Shown piece after piece: positions 4,325 to 64,000 of a DNA stretch of 64,000 nt. A program made the position numbers and the translations under genes. The DNA is from an uncultured bacterium. GTDB lineage: Bacteria > Patescibacteriota > Minisyncoccia > Moranbacterales > UBA2206. Position 1 is the first letter of the stretch; the number at the start of each line of letters is the position of its first letter. The DNA lies in assembly GCA_903937035.1 (NCBI GenBank), contig CAIZXS010000020.1, positions 3,443 to 67,442 on the forward strand. The letters are read 5' to 3'. The notes below the pieces were generated by a model. It was not told the DNA's origin, did no database searches, and was given only the letters and a program-made list of their open reading frames with translations.

Positions 4325-5035
4325 TTATGATAAATTTTTTATCTTTTTCATCTTGTAACATAATATACCAATATCCGCATACTGATTCACTAATAAAGGA
4401 TAAAACTTCTCTCCTTGCAGCTGCACTTCCTGAAAGTCCTTTATCCTACTAAGATAATTCGCATTTTTTGTAACTTTAATTTTTCCATACACATAAAAAA
4501 TCTGCTTTGGATTACTACTGCATTTTTCACCATCCATGTTTTCAATGAAGTTCTTAACTATGTCCACTGCCTTGCGCACTGCAATTTTTCTATTTCTATT
4601 TTTCATCCCAAACTCCAATTCCACCGCATTTTCAACCACACCACCAAGGGGTCCTCTGGGATTTGGCCACAACAAAACTCTATCCAAATTTAAACTGCCC
4701 ACCGGAAAATTTTCAGGCAAATGTTTCTTGGGAATAATAATAAAATCATCATAGCCTTCTCGCGCCTCATGGAGATCAATTACAAACTGATATTTTTGGG
4801 CGATTGATAAAATCTTTGAAGCTCTCCTTTTTTCGTATGAAGAAGCGAGTTTATCTCCTGGATACGCTCGATTTAGGTCAGTATCTAAAAAACGAACGTT
4901 TCTCTTTTCTGCTCGAGGATTAGCTATTATAAAATCAAAAGATGCTTCATAGCCTTGCTTCAACAGCTCGTCAATAACTTCAATTCCGATTTTTTCATCA
5001 CCATGAGTCGCAGCTATGATGAGTATTTTTTTCAT
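4325..5035 (-). CDS. succinylglutamate desuccinylase/aspartoacylase (AstE/AspA) family zinc hydrolase
   Basis: N-terminal ATHGDE zinc-binding motif and family-like length. Confidence 0.65.
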   Translation of the reverse strand: MKKILIIAATHGDEKIGIEVIDELLKQGYEASFDFIIANPRAEKRNVRFLDTDLNRAYPGDKLASSYEKRRASKILSIAQKYQFVIDLHEAREGYDDFIIIPKKHLPENFPVGSLNLDRVLLWPNPRGPLGGVVENAVELEFGMKNRNRKIAVRKAVDIVKNFIENMDGEKCSSNPKQIFYVYGKIKVTKNANYLSRIKDFQEVQLQGEKFYPLLVNQYADIGILCYKMKKIKNLS

Positions 5036-6192: not shown

Positions 6193-6248
6193 ATGAAACT
6201 TGTTTCATGTTTCATGTTTCATGTTTCATGTTTCATGTTTCATGTTTT
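6193..6248. repeat. heptanucleotide microsatellite (TGTTTCA)x6 with inverted 5' copy
   Basis: atgaaac-t-tgtttca tgtttca tgtttca tgtttca tgtttca tgtttca tgtttt, immediately 3' of the trxA stop and 5' of trxB. Confidence 0.7.
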
Positions 6249-6561
6249 ACGCCTTCTCCAGCGCCTCCTTCAAGGTCTCCTTCGCCTGCATTCCCACAAA
6301 TTCCTGAACAACCTTTCCGCCCTTGAAGATTTTAAGTGCTGGGATGGACATAATAGAAAATTCTTGCGCTGTTTTGGAATTTTCATCGACATTGATTTTT
6401 CCCACTTTAGCTTTTCCATCAAATTCTTTGGCCAATTCTTCGATAATTGGACCCATTGCTAGACATGGCCCACACCAAGGTGCCCAGAAATCCACCAAAA
6501 CAGGCTTATCACTTTTTAAAACTTCCGCCTCAAAATTTTGATCCGTCAAAACTAGTTCCAT
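6247..6561 (-). CDS. trxA: thioredoxin
   Basis: WAPWCGPC active site. ATG at 6561 (MELVLTDQNFEAEV) preferred over the TTG-initiated extension to 6579. Confidence 0.9.
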   Translation of the reverse strand: MELVLTDQNFEAEVLKSDKPVLVDFWAPWCGPCLAMGPIIEELAKEFDGKAKVGKINVDENSKTAQEFSIMSIPALKIFKGGKVVQEFVGMQAKETLKEALEKA

Positions 6562-6701
6562 AAAAATATAACTTATCAATTGCAGTCTTTACTGCAAAGA
6601 ATAAGTGTTAATTAAAAAATTAAAACGTTACGTTGTTAGTCACTTGTTCACACATTCACATAAATTCGCCTGCCTGCCGGTAGGCAGGTAATTCGTAGGG
6701 A

Positions 6702-12207: not shown

Positions 12208-12256
12208 ATGTTATATGCTTCATGTTATATGTTACATGTTATGCTACATGTATTTT
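12208..12256. repeat. imperfect tandem 12-14-bp repeats (ATGTTATATGYTWC x3)
   Basis: atgttatatgcttc / atgttatatgttac / atgttatgctac / atgtatttt sit 60-110 bp upstream of the smc start. Confidence 0.5.
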
Positions 12257-22235: not shown

Positions 22236-22439
22236 TGTCATTCCCGCGAAGGCGGCCTGCCTGCTGGTAGGCAGGGAATCCAGTCTCTAGGCCATAGCAA
22301 AAACGAGCATCGTCCTGATTGGCGATTCTTTGTTTGTAAAAATTCATTTTTTGCACCTATTTTCTCAGCTTATCAAAATACAAAGTTAGTAATTCTTACT
22401 AAGTCTTTACACTGGATCCCCGCCTGCGCGGGGATGACA
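22236..22439. repeat. GC-rich hairpin-pair composite element (MITE-like), copy 1
   Basis: Left end tgtcattcccgcgaaggcgg[cctgcctgctggtaggcagg]gaatccag (22236-22283); right end ctggatccccgcctgcgcggggatgaca (22412-22439) in inverted orientation. It fills the whole cysS/small-ORF to dus intergenic gap. Confidence 0.6.
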
Positions 22440-23436: not shown

Positions 23437-23440
23437 CAGG

Positions 23441-23582
23441 ACTTACGCGCTTGCCAAGAGCAAGCTTTTCTATGGCCAAGGTTAATTCTGAAAAACTTTA
23501 ATGGCTTCAGCTGTTAAAATAGATTAAAATAACCTCTAAGCAGCCATGCGCTTTAAAGATTGCTCTTGGTAAGCGTGTAAGT
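23441..23582 (+). promoter_or_regulatory. candidate structured RNA element / dnaB leader
   Basis: 23-nt arms acttacgcgcttgccaagagcaa (23441-23463) and ttgctcttggtaagcgtgtaagt (23560-23582) are complementary except for two positions that give G-U pairs only in the plus-strand RNA. ttgctctt recurs at 23642. Confidence 0.4.
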
Positions 23583-23671
23583 CATACATAAATAATGTGC
23601 ACAATCAGCGCATAAGTTGGGCAAAAGTGCAAGTTGCCGAGTTGCTCTTCTCTTGCTAGAATAGATTAGCT

Positions 23672-25033: not shown

Positions 25034-25165
25034 CCTAAAAATCCAAAGCCCAAATGACAAATGTCAATTCAAATCAAAAGTTCAAATATCAAATTTTCTA
25101 TTTTTGCATTTTGTCATTTGATATTGATTTGAAATTTGGATTTTGAAATTTGAAATTTATAGCAT
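25034..25165. repeat. long AT-rich imperfect palindrome (aaatttcaaa / tttgacattt family), copy A
   Basis: aaatccaaagcccaaatgacaaatgtcaa ... ttttgtcatttgatattgatttgaaatttggattttgaaatttgaaattt, between dnaB and recR. Confidence 0.5.
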
Positions 25166-25759
25166 ATGTATCCCAAATCTTTCAAAAAACTAATCGACAA
25201 CTTCGCGGCTTTGCCCTCCATCGGTCCTAAAATGGCCGAACGCTTGGTATTGTATTTATTCAAAGAAGATAATCAAAAATTATCTGAGTTTGCCAAAAGC
25301 CTTGAGGATTTCAAGAAGAATCTTCGTCACTGTAAAAAATGCTGGAATATCAGCGAAGAAGAATATTGCTCAATTTGCAAAGATAGCTCACGCGATCAAG
25401 CCACAATTTGCGTCGTAGAAGATGCACTGGATGTTTTTGCGATCGAAAAAACTAAAAAATATAACGGCATATACCATGTTCTCGGCGGAGTGCTTAACCC
25501 AACAAGAACCGTCGGATCGGACAATTTGCATTTCAAGGACTTGGAAAATAGAGCTGAAAAAGAAGAAATCAAAGAAGTGATTCTAGCCATGAATCCAACC
25601 ACAGAAGGCGACGCCACAGCGCTCTATATCACCAGAAACCTAAAAGATAAAGGCGCGAAGATTACCCGCCTCGCAAGGGGCCTCGCCACTGGCGCTGACA
25701 TTGAACATGCGGATGAGCTAACACTCAGTTCGTCTCTTGCCAATAGGAGGGAAGTTTAA
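25166..25759 (+). CDS. recR: recombination protein RecR
   Basis: C4 zinc finger CKKCWNISEEEYCSIC and a Toprim domain. Confidence 0.9.
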   Translation: MYPKSFKKLIDNFAALPSIGPKMAERLVLYLFKEDNQKLSEFAKSLEDFKKNLRHCKKCWNISEEEYCSICKDSSRDQATICVVEDALDVFAIEKTKKYNGIYHVLGGVLNPTRTVGSDNLHFKDLENRAEKEEIKEVILAMNPTTEGDATALYITRNLKDKGAKITRLARGLATGADIEHADELTLSSSLANRREV

Positions 25760-25764
25760 AAAAA

Positions 25765-25799
25765 CAAAAAAACTCGGATCCTCTCGGTCCGAGTTTTTA
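25765..25799. terminator. bidirectional intrinsic terminator between recR and rplU
   Basis: aaaaacaaaaaa-actcgga-tcctctcgg-tccgagt-ttttaa. Confidence 0.6.
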
Positions 25800-25816
25800 A
25801 TATTTCAAAAGAAAAC

Positions 25817-26976: not shown

Positions 26977-27000
26977 TTAATTATGATAGACCGCCATATT

Positions 27001-27158
27001 TGTCATTCCCGCGAAGGCGGGAATCCAGGCTCCACTAGTTATAAATTACAAACAATCAAGTTATAAATCCCCTAACTTCTTATTATCAACCAGTAAATTC
27101 TGTTTTTCTTTTTCTTAAAACCTGAGGTGCCTGGATCCCCGACTTCTCGGGGATGACA
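27001..27158. repeat. GC-rich hairpin-pair composite element (MITE-like), copy 2
   Basis: tgtcattcccgcgaaggcgggaatccag (27001-27028) ... ctggatccccgacttctcggggatgaca (27131-27158), between rluB and ispH. Confidence 0.6.
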
Positions 27159-27195
27159 CGGAAGAGAGAATCGCACTAAAAGATTAAACTCTACC

Positions 27196-36072: not shown

Positions 36073-37701
36073 ATGCTTCAATCCTACGACGAATTTGTAA
36101 AATGTGCAATGAAAGAGCTTATATCCACCTCTGGTGAGTTTTTGCGTATCAAAAAAAATGTCTCTAAACTCTTACAAATTCCCGTCCCAACCAACGCTGA
36201 CCTACGCGAAGCTTATGAAAAATTAATCCTAGTAAAAAAAATTAAAAGAAATCTGGCTTTTGAAAACGTCCTTATTAGCAAAAAAATTCGCACACGCTCT
36301 GGTGTTGCTGTTATCGCAGTTCTCACTAAGCCTTATCCTTGCCCAGGAAAATGCCTCTATTGCCCCAGTGAATCCAAGATGCCCAAGAGTTACCTTAAAA
36401 ATGAGCCAGCTGTTATGCGAGCCATCTCCGTCAAATTCAATCCCTACGCCCAAGTGCAAAAACGCTTGCACGCGTTGGAATTAAATGGACACAAAACGGA
36501 CAAAATTGAACTGATCGTGATGGGTGGAACCTTTTCCTATTTTCCCAAAAAATATCAAAGTTGGTTTATTCTGGAATGTTTTCGGGCAGCGAATGATTAT
36601 GGTCATAAAACATATAACATAAAACATAAAACAATAGATGCAAAGACGCCCCAGCGTGGCGTCTCTACCACATTAGGCCGCGAACAAAAGAAAAATGAAA
36701 CCGCCAAACGCCGAATTATTGGGCTAACATTAGAAACTCGACCAGATTATATCGATGAAAAAGAAATTCTCAATTTTCGTGCCCTTGGTTGCACAAGAGT
36801 AGAACTGGGCGTGCAAAGTATTTTTGATGACGTGCTCGAAAAGAATAACCGCGGGCATGATGTGTCCGAAACAATCCGCGCCACAAAGTTTCTCAAAAAC
36901 GCCGGCTTCAAAATCAACTATCACATGATGCCGGGACTTTATGGGTCGGACGCCAAAAAAGATTATCAAATGTTCGAAAAATTGTTCTCCTCGCCAGATT
37001 TCCAACCTGATATGCTTAAAATCTATCCAACGGTTGTTCTACGCGATAGCGCGCTCTATGCTGTTTGGAAAAAAGGAAAATATAAAGCGCTAAGCGACAA
37101 ACAATTTGAAGAATTCATTCTTCGCGTAAAAAATAATCTCATCCCCCCTTACGTCCGAATTGCTCGCCTTGTGCGCGACGTCCCAGCTGAATCAATCATT
37201 GCTGGACCGATTGTTTCTAATTTACGGCAATTGATTGCCGAAAAATCCCAGTGTCAATGCATTCGTTGCCGAGAGGTTGGTGGAAATTTCAAGCCCAAGG
37301 AAAGTATAATTCTCAACCGCATCGATTATGATGCATCAAATGGGAAGGAAATATTTTTGGAATACGTAACGAAAGACACAAAAAAACTTTTTGCTCTTCT
37401 ACGCTTGCGCATAAATCCACTTGAGACGAGAAATCAAAAAACTGGCGTTCCCGCTCTCAAAAATTCCGCCATCATCCGCGAAGTACATACTTATGGAAAA
37501 ATGACACAGCTTAATAAAAAAGATCTAAAATCACCTCAACATATTGGCCTTGGAAAAAAACTCATTGCCGAAGCCCAAAAAATTGCCAAGGATGAATTTG
37601 GCCTCAAAAAAATTGCTGTTATTTCCGGCATCGGCGCGAGAGAATATTATAGAAAGCTGGGATATAAACTAAAAGATAGTTATATGCTAAAATATCTTTA
37701 A
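36073..37701 (+). CDS. elp3: Elp3-family radical SAM / GNAT tRNA modification enzyme
   Basis: KPYPCPGKCLYCP radical-SAM cluster motif and C-terminal GNAT fold (GLGKKLIAEAQKIA). The start may be the internal MKELIS at 36109. Confidence 0.8.
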   Translation: MLQSYDEFVKCAMKELISTSGEFLRIKKNVSKLLQIPVPTNADLREAYEKLILVKKIKRNLAFENVLISKKIRTRSGVAVIAVLTKPYPCPGKCLYCPSESKMPKSYLKNEPAVMRAISVKFNPYAQVQKRLHALELNGHKTDKIELIVMGGTFSYFPKKYQSWFILECFRAANDYGHKTYNIKHKTIDAKTPQRGVSTTLGREQKKNETAKRRIIGLTLETRPDYIDEKEILNFRALGCTRVELGVQSIFDDVLEKNNRGHDVSETIRATKFLKNAGFKINYHMMPGLYGSDAKKDYQMFEKLFSSPDFQPDMLKIYPTVVLRDSALYAVWKKGKYKALSDKQFEEFILRVKNNLIPPYVRIARLVRDVPAESIIAGPIVSNLRQLIAEKSQCQCIRCREVGGNFKPKESIILNRIDYDASNGKEIFLEYVTKDTKKLFALLRLRINPLETRNQKTGVPALKNSAIIREVHTYGKMTQLNKKDLKSPQHIGLGKKLIAEAQKIAKDEFGLKKIAVISGIGAREYYRKLGYKLKDSYMLKYL

Positions 37702-40396: not shown

Positions 40397-40432
40397 ATTA
40401 TTATTCCAAAACTCGTGTGCTCAAAATTAAAC

Positions 40433-40572
40433 TGTCATCCTGAGCGAAGTCCTGTACTCAGGGCGAAGCCGAAGGATCTGCCCACTAAAACCTCAAGCTT
40501 TACAAATATAAATAAGATCCGATTAACCCAGAGCAGATTCTTCGACTCCGCTACGCTCCGCTCAGAATGACA
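40433..40572. repeat. GC-rich hairpin-pair composite element (MITE-like), copy 3
   Basis: tgtcatcctgagcgaagtc[ctgtactcagggcgaag]ccgaaggatc (40433-40478) ... gattcttcgactccgctacgctccgctcagaatgaca (40536-40572), between rlmN and ogt. Confidence 0.6.
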
Positions 40573-40586
40573 AAAAGAGTTTAGTT

Positions 40587-50132: not shown

Positions 50133-50313
50133 GTTCTATAATATAAAAACCAATTAAAAATGATGCACCCCTTAATTTCAAAATCCTAATGCCAAATTTC
50201 CAATCAACCTCAAAATTCAAAGCTCAAAATATTTTTTGACATTTGGATTTTTAATTTTGTTTGACATTGGAAATTTGAGCTTTGAAATTATCTTGGATTT
50301 GGATTTAGCAATT
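50133..50313. repeat. long AT-rich imperfect palindrome, copy B
   Basis: ttaatttcaaaatcctaatgccaaatttccaa...aaattcaaagctcaaaat // ttgtttgacattggaaatttgagctttgaaatt. Shares 17-25-nt blocks with copy C. Confidence 0.55.
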
Positions 50314-51555: not shown

Positions 51556-51687
51556 AAATCAAAATGGAAAAATCAAAAATCAAAATGACAAAGCAAAATT
51601 AAAAATGAGTTTTAGCAATTTTGTATTTTACATTGTCATTTTCCCTACCTACCGGCAGGCAGACATTTTGAGCTTTGATTTTTCCAT
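51556..51687. repeat. AT-rich palindrome, copy D, plus degenerate GC hairpin
   Basis: caaaatgacaaagcaaaatt ... attttgtattttacattgtcatttt, followed by cctacctaccggcaggcag (related to the inner hairpin of element copy 1). Confidence 0.45.
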
Positions 51688-52416
51688 TTACTTTAATAGT
51701 TCCTTCTCTCCATCCGCAATCCGCCTATGCTTCACCGGATCATCTGCAATAATACTACCATCCTTAACATAGATTATTCTTTTTGCATGTTCGGCAGTAT
51801 ACGTCTCATGTGTAACCAAAATTACGGTATGCCCAGAATCATTTAATTTCTGTAAAATTTTCATCACTTGAAGCCCTGACTTTGAATCCAGATTTCCTGT
51901 TGGCTCATCAGCAAAAATCACCTCTGGATCATTGACTAGGGCTCTTGCTATTGCCACGCGCTGTTTTTCCCCACCAGACAATTGGTTGGAAAAATATTGT
52001 GCCCGATGTTCCATGTCAACAGCATTAAGGGCATCCATCACTTTTTTGGCATTGCTTTTATTTGGCTTTTCATCATAAAGCAAGGGAAGCTCGACATTTT
52101 CGAATACTGTCGTTCTGGACAGCAAATTAAAAGACTGAAAGACAAAGCCAATTTTTCTATTCCTAATCCTAGCCAAAGTATCATCATCAAATGTGAAAGT
52201 ATCTTTGCCTTCGAAAAAATATTTCCCCTCCGTCGGCCGATCCAGAAATCCCAAAATTTGCATCAAAGTTGATTTACCAGAACCTGATGGGCCCATAATA
52301 GAAATGAACTCACCTTTTTCAATTTCAAATGTCGCGCCACAAAGCGCCCGCGTTTCCACACCGTCATTAGAATAGGTCTTGCAAAGATTTCTAACTTGAA
52401 TTAGGGGGTTTGACAT
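51688..52416 (-). CDS. ABC transporter ATP-binding protein (MacB/LolD-type)
   Basis: Walker [10 protein letters not shown], signature [15 protein letters not shown], Walker [13 protein letters not shown]. Confidence 0.9.
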
Positions 52417-52812: not shown

Positions 52813-54111
52813 TTAAATCGCTTTTGTAAAAGTAACGACTTTGTCACCATTTTTTAAGCCAGATTTTGCCTCAACCATCCCCCCATCACCCTCAAGTCCA
52901 GTGGTAATTTTCACTTCTTGGACCAAATTATTATCACTCAAAACATCCACAAATTTCTCTCCATTTCTGATTTTAATGGCTCTAAGAGGAATCATAAGCA
53001 CATCACCTTTTTCATTGGTCCGCACATCAACATTGGCACTCATTCCTGGCTTCAACCTCAAATCAATTGTGGAAAGTTTCAACTTAATCCCATAATAAAC
53101 TACGTCTTGAATAACAGTTTCAGCTGGATTAATTTCAATGAGCTCTGCCTCGAATTCATCGCCAGTTGGCAGCGCATCAAAAGTAACTTTGGCTTTTTGA
53201 CCAAGCTTTAGTTTCACAATATCCGACTCGGGAATATTAGACTCAATAATAAAATCATCAGCAATAATCCGCGCAAAGGATTCTTTAATCACGCCGGTAC
53301 CCAAAATTTCTCCCACCTTATTATTCACTTCCACGATTGTGCCAGAAACCGGTGCTTTGAGCACGGCTTTCGAGAGATTATTGAGCGCAATCTCATAATT
53401 GGCTTTGGCGTTGTCCACCGAGGCGTTCTTGGAATTGAGCGTGAAATCCGATTCAGTCGTTTTCAATCTAGCTTTCGCCGCGTCCAAAGAATTCTCCGCC
53501 GAAGTAATCGCCAAATCGCGAGATTTTTTAGCAGTATCCAATGCTTCCTCGGCCGCTTTCTTGCTGTTTAGGGCCGTAGTCAAAGTCAACTTATTATTCT
53601 TGGTCGGGCTGTCATTATAAAAATCCAACGCGTCAGAATAATAGTCCTTGGCATTATCGAGTGCCGTCTCCGCCGCGTCAACTCTTTGTTTTTCCAACTT
53701 CTCTGTTTCATCCAAAAAATTATCAGCATTATCCACCGCCACGTCTGATTCACGGATTGCATCATTATTTGATCCAGCATCGGCCACCGCTTTGTTGAGT
53801 GTTGCCTTCGCTACCGCGACTTGACCGGACAGATTGACATTGTCAAGCATCGCGATTGAATCACCCGCAGCTACCTTGTTGCCTTTTTTAATGAAGACTT
53901 TGCTAATTCTTCCACCCAATTCGAAATTAAGCACGATCTCAGAGTCATCCTTTAAATCCCCGGTCGCTGAAACAGTTTGCGATAGATTTCCTTTTTCCAC
54001 CGTTGCGGTCGTATATTCAACTTTGGGTTTTTTGGATTTGGAATAGAAAAAATAGCCTCCGGCAACAAACAAGATTAGGACAAATATGATGGTTTTTTTG
54101 TATCTAAACAT
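52813..54111 (-). CDS. HlyD-family efflux periplasmic adaptor (MacA-like)
   Basis: N-terminal TM, coiled-coil hairpin, beta-barrel and MP domain motifs. Confidence 0.8.
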   Translation of the reverse strand: MFRYKKTIIFVLILFVAGGYFFYSKSKKPKVEYTTATVEKGNLSQTVSATGDLKDDSEIVLNFELGGRISKVFIKKGNKVAAGDSIAMLDNVNLSGQVAVAKATLNKAVADAGSNNDAIRESDVAVDNADNFLDETEKLEKQRVDAAETALDNAKDYYSDALDFYNDSPTKNNKLTLTTALNSKKAAEEALDTAKKSRDLAITSAENSLDAAKARLKTTESDFTLNSKNASVDNAKANYEIALNNLSKAVLKAPVSGTIVEVNNKVGEILGTGVIKESFARIIADDFIIESNIPESDIVKLKLGQKAKVTFDALPTGDEFEAELIEINPAETVIQDVVYYGIKLKLSTIDLRLKPGMSANVDVRTNEKGDVLMIPLRAIKIRNGEKFVDVLSDNNLVQEVKITTGLEGDGGMVEAKSGLKNGDKVVTFTKAI

Positions 54112-54279
54112 GAGTTTTTAATTTCAAAATCCTAATTTCAAATGTCAAATCAATGCCAAAATCCAAATAACAAAATAATTCTAGTGGCTTACTTTTTTGG
54201 ATTTTGTTTGACATTGGAAATTGGAAATTTGGAATTATTATCGAATTGATTCAACATTAGGATTTTTAAATTTCATAGT
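54112..54279. repeat. long AT-rich imperfect palindrome, copy C
   Basis: Outer arms ttaatttcaaaatcctaat / attaggatttttaaatttcat; inner arms caaatgtcaaatcaa...aaaatccaaa / tttggattttgtttgacattgg. Confidence 0.55.
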
Positions 54280-63966: not shown

Positions 63967-64000
63967 AGTTATTATAATAAATAAATTATTAAATTTTTAT

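Follow-up and report, generated by a model that had tools for sequence, protein, structure and literature searches.

The closest described relatives of the repeats considered here come from Neisseria. Chenal et al. 2025 defined the Neisseria Transformation Sequence (NTS), CGTCATTCCCGCGMAVGCGGGAATCYRG, which includes the 20-bp dRS3 repeat ATTCCCN8GGGAAT, and reported that SsnA, a small GIY-YIG protein, binds and cuts the NTS solely as single-stranded DNA and on the forward strand alone, a few nucleotides 5' of the motif; in Neisseria the SsnA/NTS pair modulates natural transformation, which was shown for the NTS in N. meningitidis (PMC11893778). The same authors found ssnA homologs across phyla flanked by related motifs, which they named Ssn-related motifs (SRMs), and raised the likeness of NTS-ssnA-NTS to an insertion sequence as speculation only; the main text makes no mention of MITEs (miniature inverted-repeat transposable elements), miniature elements, the candidate phyla radiation (CPR) or Patescibacteria (PMC11893778). 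The dRS3 repeats also bound the intergenic mosaic elements of Neisseria (NIMEs), in which inverted GC-rich dRS3 repeats surround AT-richer RS spacers of 50-150 bp; NIMEs form long arrays and were reported to be Neisseria-specific, isolated dRS3-RS-dRS3 units are also described, and the RS units are possibly inert (PMC1797815). The DNA analyzed here, which we call the window, is a stretch of 64,000 nucleotides from a 72-kb metagenome contig. The nearest named relatives of its Dus and RlmN proteins are Candidatus Moranbacteria/Moraniibacteriota, which places the host in the Patescibacteria (CPR). Three loci in the window, at 22236-22439, 27001-27158 and 40433-40572 (composites 1, 2 and 3), carry paired inverted arms, and we consider it highly probable that they are non-autonomous miniature mobile elements, similar to MITEs or to the hairpin-forming doublets of repetitive extragenic palindromic (REP) sequences known as REPINs, each bounded by two inverted SRMs and assigned to one of three families, A, A2 and B. 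The composites belong to the NTS/SRM repeat class already described and are newly documented in Patescibacteria.

The arms are shown to be sequences of the NTS/SRM type. The left end of composites 1 and 2 is a 28-nt arm of the form TGTCAT-YCCCGNNNNNNCGGGR-ATCCAG (type A) and the right end is the reverse complement of this form, while composite 3 has longer arms of another type (type B, TGTCATYCTGAGCG...CGAAGRATCTGC). The arm at 27001-27028 agrees with the NTS consensus at 27 of 28 bases, the sole mismatch being T for C at base 1, and falls within the definition of an NTS by the authors' own tolerance of one mismatch. The remaining type-A arms have ATCCCC/GGGGAT stems and differ from the consensus by at least three changes. 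The published SRM search pattern (HGTCWYN(0-2)YYVSBRHN(0-5)WNVSBRGN(0-2)RNCYNB) matches two of the six arms, 22412-22439 on the minus strand and 27001-27028 on the plus strand, compared with 0.18 matches per shuffled window. Exact matches to GTCATYCCCG occur in the window only at 22237(+), 22429(-), 27002(+) and 27148(-), all of them at arms, and the shorter TGTCATYC is found additionally at 40433(+) and 40565(-). There are no solo arms in the window; all six are paired. The terminal arms are 75-83% identical over 24 nt and the elements that they delimit are non-coding and 140-204 bp long.

Each whole composite is an insertion that is lacking in related genomes. Orthologous loci were obtained through Dus and RlmN homologs that are 79-90% identical to the window proteins, and in these relatives the corresponding spacers of composites 1, 2 and 3 can be as short as 0 bp, 19-31 bp and 8 bp, respectively, with the arms and the interior missing alike (Table 1). 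Composite 2 is ~88% identical over its full length, interior included, to an element at a different site in the relative L127 (positions 4780-4934; L numbers denote the loci fetched for comparison), and composite 3 is 86% identical to the L130 copy, again with the interior. A search of JGI metagenomes for family A, which utilized a 21-nt pattern spanning the left arm and the subterminal region, returned 53 metagenome stretches in all, with a maximum of three on one contig (144 kb); after duplicate removal these represented 38 unique intact insertion sites of 156-169 bp, and there are additional copies with arms split by nested modules. When 36 family A copies were aligned together with 40-nt flanks, the column information fell from near-maximal to background exactly at TGTCAT and at ATGACA(C). 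Family B is represented by six full copies, each at a site of its own and just as sharply bounded, and family A2 has a second full-length member (approximately L306 637-840) that has both subterminal regions in common with composite 1. The three families are dispersed, multi-copy and exactly ended, TGTCAT...ATGACA. An earlier note on this DNA had reported TGTCAT...ATGACA composites at the three intergenic loci, had called them MITE-like or REP-like, and had proposed looking for further copies and for insertion polymorphism; the composites are where it placed them, and the empty spacers, the dispersed sharp-ended families and the published repeat type of the arms all agree with its description. 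The exact insertion junctions are beyond reconstruction since the spacers of the relatives, whose proteins are only about 79-90% identical, have diverged too far.

As a separate observation, two spacers, 26977-27195 and 40397-40586, hold elements of different families in close relatives (L130, L377, L378 and L379) and are empty in others. These amount to about 3 independent cases of co-occupied spacers versus roughly 0.5 expected, which suggests that preferred insertion spacers exist.

The type-A stem is maintained by compensatory substitutions and is under selection. As single-stranded DNA, three type-A arms form a hairpin of 8 bp in the stem and 4 nt in the loop at free energies (dG) of -8.3 to -9.7 kcal/mol (z -4.0 to -4.6); in the arm at 22236-22283 the canonical stem is broken by an insert and two adjacent hairpins take its place (dG -12.3, z -2.9). 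The whole element is also able to fold arm to arm (dG -28.8, z -5.8). For covariation we assembled 113 distinct arms from all fetched loci, which represent many genomes, the sole selection being for register (TC at positions 24-25). Within the 8-bp stem 97.1% of the cells are paired, compared with 85.3% in shuffles, and 95 cells carry a double change, compared with 18.7; none of 500 shuffles attained the observed value of either, and sliding the register lowered pairing to 17-54%. Three or four different Watson-Crick pairs occur at each of four stem positions, and an example within family A is the right arm of composite 2, which differs from the L127 copy by a compensatory A-T to T-A swap. Wobble (G-T) pairs account for only 17 of 904 cells, a scarcity more in keeping with a DNA palindrome than with an RNA helix. 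Positions G2-T6 (GTCAT) and T24-C25 are invariant across the set, so that a type-A arm is a hairpin semi-palindrome with a non-palindromic 5' head that gives it orientation; type-B arms are not, and the proposal that they too are hairpins was ruled out by folding them against shuffles. Compensatory pairs had been listed in the earlier note for the arms of all three composites: those of type A are real and extend to the full set of arms, while atcctgagcg/gaaggat of composite 3 comes down to a 5-bp closing stem. An internal GTCCG/CGGAC stem in the left arm of composite 3 does covary among the family B copies.

Element orientation is fixed relative to the DNA strand, in agreement with GC skew in 37 of 39 cases overall for the main family. 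With family A written by convention with the TTCCC arm at left, GC skew in the orientation of the element is negative at 37 of 38 sites, and in 26 of 28 cases the neighbour at the right is a minus-strand gene whose stop codon is usually 4-40 nt away. The skew is likewise negative in all six family B copies, to which L379, inferred, adds a seventh. Composite 1 is surrounded by plus-strand genes, in a block where the skew is still negative (-0.063), and it has the same absolute orientation as composite 2. The few informative cases hint at an orientation set by the replication strand and not by local transcription.

In other genomes, one of them from the CPR, inverted arms like those of the window are shown to enclose genes recognizable as GIY-YIG ssnA. 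An exact scan for TGTCATYCCCGNGAAGNCGGGRATCCAGG in one-genome-per-species references gave at least 120 matches. Among the matches listed, those in Patescibacteria come from Moranii-, Falkow-, Roizman-, Magasanik- and Paceibacterota, Saccharibacteria, Berkelbacteria and Peribacteria, and those elsewhere from Pseudomonadota, Planctomycetota, Nitrospirota, Chloroflexota, Omnitrophota, Bdellovibrionales, Rickettsia, Sporobacter and others. With listed matches close to a locus edge set aside, 104 are left: 46 of these are paired with an inverted arm so that GTCAT points outward (58-186 bp in total, median 84), the opposite inverted arrangement occurs in only 3 and a direct partner in 6-9, and we conclude from 46 versus 3 that the paired form is the rule. 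We built an Ssn hidden Markov model (HMM) from arm-flanked GIY-YIG (PF01541) proteins, and with it ssnA was recognized between inverted arms in several loci (Table 1). The clearest case is L221, from the Parcubacteria-group genome ARS125 (CPR), where the unit at 4563-4925 is a candidate autonomous partner by virtue of its identical end, yet it comes from a different CPR lineage and its nuclease is not a known transposase. Another ARS125 contig (L182) contains gene-less 75-bp composites whose arms are of the variant type of the second L221 unit, with 1-2 differences per 24-nt arm. One further Ssn homolog is named Paceibacterota.

We infer from this association that Ssn mobilises the composites. 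The arms would extrude as hairpins in single-stranded DNA, and an Ssn-type nuclease supplied in trans would cut a few bases 5' of each of them; since the arms are inverted, these cuts would fall at the two outer edges of the element and on opposite strands, matching the observed boundaries. Single-strand processing, probably at the replication fork, would then copy or move the unit. It is also possible, and we put it forward tentatively, that the composites and the arm-ssnA-arm units together make up a widespread and formally unrecognised class of prokaryotic mobile elements whose sole enzyme is a small GIY-YIG single-strand nuclease, which move strand-specifically by way of single-stranded DNA, make no target duplication and have hairpin ends that host smaller modules, and which, with a 28-nt end that hardly varies, would have spread through Patescibacteria, Pseudomonadota, Planctomycetota, Chloroflexota, Nitrospirota and others.

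Several results weigh against mobile elements of this kind or against their mobilisation by Ssn. The SRM pattern has no match in four of the six arms (27131-27158, the interrupted 22236-22283 and both type-B arms), and the type-B arms of composite 3 give folds no stronger than those of shuffles (z -0.4 and +0.3). Neither tblastn nor the HMM turned up a cd10448-type Ssn gene in the window, and the HMM gave none for the remainder of the contig or for 528 kb of Moranbacteria-like DNA that holds dozens of elements; no Moranbacteria-named Ssn is among the best 120 homologs of a search seeded with a CPR protein, and just one unit pairing type-B arms with Ssn was found (L365). GIY-YIG nucleases hydrolyse DNA, and to our knowledge no enzyme of this group has strand-transfer activity; the route from a hydrolytic cut to an insertion is unexplained. 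No direct repeat of the kind that a MITE would leave as a target-site duplication flanks the family A copies, and these copies have no conserved target motif, the flank bias being only compositional (T-rich at the left, A-rich at the right). The copies are 75-90% identical, and because of this the spread is not recent. With respect to strand, 80% of the coding sequence is opposite to the family A element strand, so the orientation bias does not separate cleanly from gene orientation, and L378 is a counter-example to it.

The sole HMM match, at L271 11855-12160, was rejected, as it scored 44 bits versus more than 100 for most arm-flanked Ssn proteins; judged from its sequence, and with no database confirmation, this GIY-YIG gene looks like a member of a different, UPF0213-like subfamily. 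It has a setting of its own (L271 11700-12449): the gene (MFYFVYLLES...) lies between tRNA genes and is flanked by three ~95-nt repeats with the hairpin CCACGTGATTGACGAAAGTCGATTTTACGTGG, and the gene and these repeats may be another nuclease-repeat pair.

The composites could also serve the host, which would be compatible with non-autonomous mobile elements, either as Ssn cleavage sites that shape incoming single-stranded DNA in transformation or as promoters for downstream genes. The role of SsnA/NTS in Neisseria is a precedent for the first, and one family B copy has been kept orthologously in the window and L379 (RlmN 85% identical). For the second, the interior of family A carries on its minus strand a positionally conserved sigma-70-like TTGATA-N18-TATAAT, directed at the TTCCC arm and at the gene downstream (TATAAC in place of TATAAT in the window copy); a motif scoring at least 10/12 is present in 15 of 36 copies, compared with 4.6% of shuffled interiors, and in 0 of 36 on the other strand. 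An outward promoter with a secondary effect on neighbouring genes is possible in family A, but the promoter rules of CPR bacteria are not known, the 528 kb searched for this lineage gave no Ssn gene, and close relatives manage without the elements at every site examined. We regard a host-serving role as rather doubtful.

It is unlikely that a different enzyme mobilises the composites, with their TG...CA ends being those of a conventional transposon (of a DDE or an IS110/Piv-type recombinase) and the Ssn association incidental or regulatory. The missing Ssn gene in the 528 kb of related DNA and the chemistry known for GIY-YIG enzymes speak for such an enzyme, as does the fact that dRS3 is a known target of a phage recombinase in Neisseria; however, no transposase was seen between such arms in any fetched locus while Ssn genes were found there repeatedly, the target duplication that most DDE transposons make was not found, and a strand-fixed orientation suits single-strand chemistry better. 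We consider it very unlikely that the hairpins inserted singly and independently, bracketing a native spacer or genes as in the NTS-gene-NTS arrangement of Neisseria, so that the composite would not be a unit. The window arms do lie 14-38 bp from the adjoining start or stop codons, the interiors of the three window composites are mutually unrelated and solo arms are present in other genomes, but interiors are conserved between copies at unrelated sites, empty sites lack arms and interior together, and outward inverted pairs far exceed the opposite arrangement among the listed matches. The least credible reading is that of structured RNAs, attenuators or terminators acting in the transcript between co-directional genes, which the earlier note had raised: the stem does covary, the three window copies do lie between such genes and a T-run follows 22416-22435 just upstream of dus, but this is one arm of six, an Rfam scan (gathering threshold and E<=1) gave no match at the elements and only two tRNAs, terminator and promoter scans of the arms gave no consistent signal, every element has one arm in each orientation to transcription, wobble pairs are scarce, close relatives dispense with the elements in empty orthologous spacers where genes abut, and the same arms flank nuclease genes at unrelated loci in many phyla.

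Table 1. Positions of the composites, their parts, the compared spacers and related units (window positions unless an L number is given)
Feature	Location	Strand	Description
Composite 1	22236-22439	+	204 bp, family A2; SRM-type inverted ends, TTCCC-type arm at left
Composite 1 left arm	22236-22283	+	Canonical TGTCATTCCCGCGAAGGCGG^GAATCCAG, split by 20-nt nested hairpin
Nested hairpin module CCTGCCTGCTGGTAGGCAGG	22256-22275	+	20 nt, between GGCGG and GAATCC of the arm
Composite 1 interior	22284-22411	.	128 bp, AT-rich, non-coding; ~79% identity to L306 over 95 bp
Composite 1 right arm	22412-22439	-	TGTCATCCCCGCGCAGGCGGGGATCCAG; SRM-pattern match, dG -9.7, z -4.0
Composite 2	27001-27159	+	158 bp plus conserved C, family A
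Composite 2 left arm	27001-27028	+	TGTCATTCCCGCGAAGGCGGGAATCCAG; exact dRS3 inside; dG -8.9, z -4.6
Composite 2 interior	27029-27130	.	102 bp, AT-rich, family-conserved; sigma-70-like TTGATA-N18-TATAAC on minus strand
Composite 2 right arm	27131-27158	-	TGTCATCCCCGAGAAGTCGGGGATCCAG; dG -8.3, z -4.4
Composite 3	40433-40572	+	140 bp, family B
Composite 3 left arm	40433-40482	+	TGTCATCCTGAGCG...CGAAGGATCTGCC, small hairpin inside; fold z -0.4
Composite 3 right arm	40527-40572	-	TGTCATTCTGAGCGGAGCGTAGCGGAGTCGAAGAATCTGC; fold z +0.3
Small ORF to dus spacer			224 bp in window, with composite 1; 0 bp in relatives L126, L127, L128
rluF to ispH spacer	26977-27195		219 bp in window, with composite 2; 31 bp in L127, 19 bp in L128; family B element in L130
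MGMT to rlmN spacer	40397-40586		190 bp in window, with composite 3; 8 bp in L380
MGMT to rlmN spacer, other relatives			L379, orthologous family B copy; L378, family A element; L377, A2-like element
recR to L21 spacer			57 bp in window, bidirectional terminator; family A element in L127
Arm-ssnA-arm unit	L108 7786-8164		
Arm-ssnA-arm unit	L221 4563-4925		End 29/29 identical to 27001-27029
Arm-ssnA-arm unit	L221 6616-6970		Perfect 24-nt arms, variant type
Arm-Ssn ORF-arm unit	L365 10731-11228		Short type-B arms
Further arm modules	L221 4880-4905; L255, L274, L275, L278, L284, L289, L293, L299, L302, L306		

All three composites of the window are intergenic. Composite 1 lies between an open reading frame (ORF) of 76 aa and dus, composite 2 between an rluF-like pseudouridine synthase gene and ispH, and composite 3 between rlmN and an MGMT-like gene. 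The earlier note had placed all copies between co-directional genes, which holds for these three and does not hold family-wide, as 6 of the 27 classifiable members lie between convergent genes. It had also pointed to spurious CHSREGG and IPACAGMT peptides, and we did find an 82-aa ORF (MCHSREGG...WIPACAGMT) that traverses composite 1 and is called as a gene in public assemblies. This ORF is spurious, an artefact of the arms, and the practical effect of the composites is that they cause such ORF calls (CHSREGG..., IPACAGMT) in CPR assemblies.

The arms are themselves occupied by smaller repeats. The nested 20-nt hairpin of composite 1, for which copies outside the element had been noted before, does recur alone at 6668-6692 and in degenerate form at 51643-51667 (repeat family D18). 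This hairpin, CCTGCCTGCYGGTAGGCAGG, acts as a nested module that is found just 5' of GAT/GAAT in arms of families A2, A and B, as well as alone, and it is present in the arms of other genomes (L264, L294, L300 and L264a). At least three more small modules occur inside SRM arms (CGGAGTTTATRCTCGT..., CTCYGCCAGCTGGCGGAT and CCACCGCTAAAGCTAAGGCG; Table 1), and the hairpin ends look like hot spots for insertion in their own right.

Other repeats were observed near the composites. The dus-dnaB spacer of the window contains, at 23440-23583, a different 144-bp hairpin-pair composite with 29-nt arms (GACTTACGCGCTTGCCAAGAGCAAGCTTT) that are 90% complementary and each carry a GCTTGC/GCAAGC hairpin; the spacer of the relatives is just 79 bp, and copies that are ~78% identical occur at L148 5506-5648 and L272 2617-2759. 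Long AT-rich palindromic intergenic elements made of TTTGAAATTTGGATTTT-type units occupy 25037-25169, 50172-50301, 51562-51689 and 54108-54274 and are related to each other and to copies in L128, L256, L275 and L300. A tandem run of the heptamer TGTTTCA is found at 6201-6249; the stretch 12216-12236 is related to it, and the complement lies at 36604-36633. The recR-L21 spacer of the window has a compact bidirectional terminator at 25757-25816 (AAAAAAACTCGGA...TCCGAGTTTTT), and in L127 a family A element stands directly beside the equivalent terminator. Just past window position 64000 the same contig (L252 1-6444) contains a cluster that resembles a diversity-generating retroelement, with bAvd and a large gene with a Fib_succ_major domain; the annotation of a reverse-transcriptase gene at the corresponding position is confined to the sister contig L253.

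How dRS3/NTS-type repeats arose and spread has been an open question since the first genomes of meningococci. The present elements make clean test material for the insertion-sequence idea, as they offer exact ends, empty and filled sites, a fixed strand and a CPR Ssn gene with an identical end. That SRM pairs are mobile units is an added implication of this work and is unproven.

The composites can be compared with several known systems. They resemble the IS200/IS605 elements in that the hairpin ends of the latter are recognised in single-stranded DNA, in the lack of target duplication and in an orientation that, for the composites, seems tied to the replication strand; the ends of IS200/IS605 are not inverted, however, and a Y1 transposase acts on one and the same strand at both of them, whereas the ends of the composites are inverted, which puts the forward arms on opposite strands. 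Bacterial MITEs such as the Correia elements are likewise non-coding and ~140-200 bp long; they too have inverted repeats at their ends, many intergenic copies and polymorphic insertion, and the possible outward-reading promoter is a further likeness to the Correia type; unlike them, the composites lack a target-site duplication, have a hairpin for each of their terminal repeats and have a candidate autonomous partner that encodes a nuclease in place of a transposase. REPINs, or bacterial interspersed mosaic elements made of REPs (REP-BIMEs), with their RAYT enzymes share the layout of two inverted palindromes and a spacer in one non-autonomous, extragenic unit, a cognate enzyme gene that is flanked by the repeats and the absence of target duplication (PMC3116915, PMC3337134). 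They differ in having an HUH/Y1 transposase in place of a GIY-YIG nuclease and the head GTAG in place of GTCAT; no RAYT/Y1 transposase appeared in the gene tables or ORF sets examined, in which no search aimed at RAYT was made. The layout of the isolated dRS3-RS-dRS3 unit of the NIMEs is closer, and the interiors of composites 1 and 2 are within the length range of RS spacers. An exact dRS3 is present only in the left arm of composite 2, the right arms having ATCCCCN8GGGGAT and the left arm of composite 1 being interrupted, and the composites differ from NIMEs in being isolated single units in Patescibacteria, outside any array, with conserved interiors of their own and the character of discrete insertions. 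The closest match is with the NTS/SRM repeats themselves, from the near-complete agreement with the NTS consensus and the hairpin with a directional GTCAT head to the extragenic location and the arms of the same kind that flank ssnA in inverted orientation, also in a CPR genome (PMC11893778). The spatial association with ssnA was not found in the window, the contig or the 528 kb of related DNA and is seen in other genomes with identical arms. The published work covered RefSeq reference genomes and took each motif as a repeat in its own right; the unit described here consists of two arms and a conserved interior, with sharp ends, empty sites and a fixed strand orientation.

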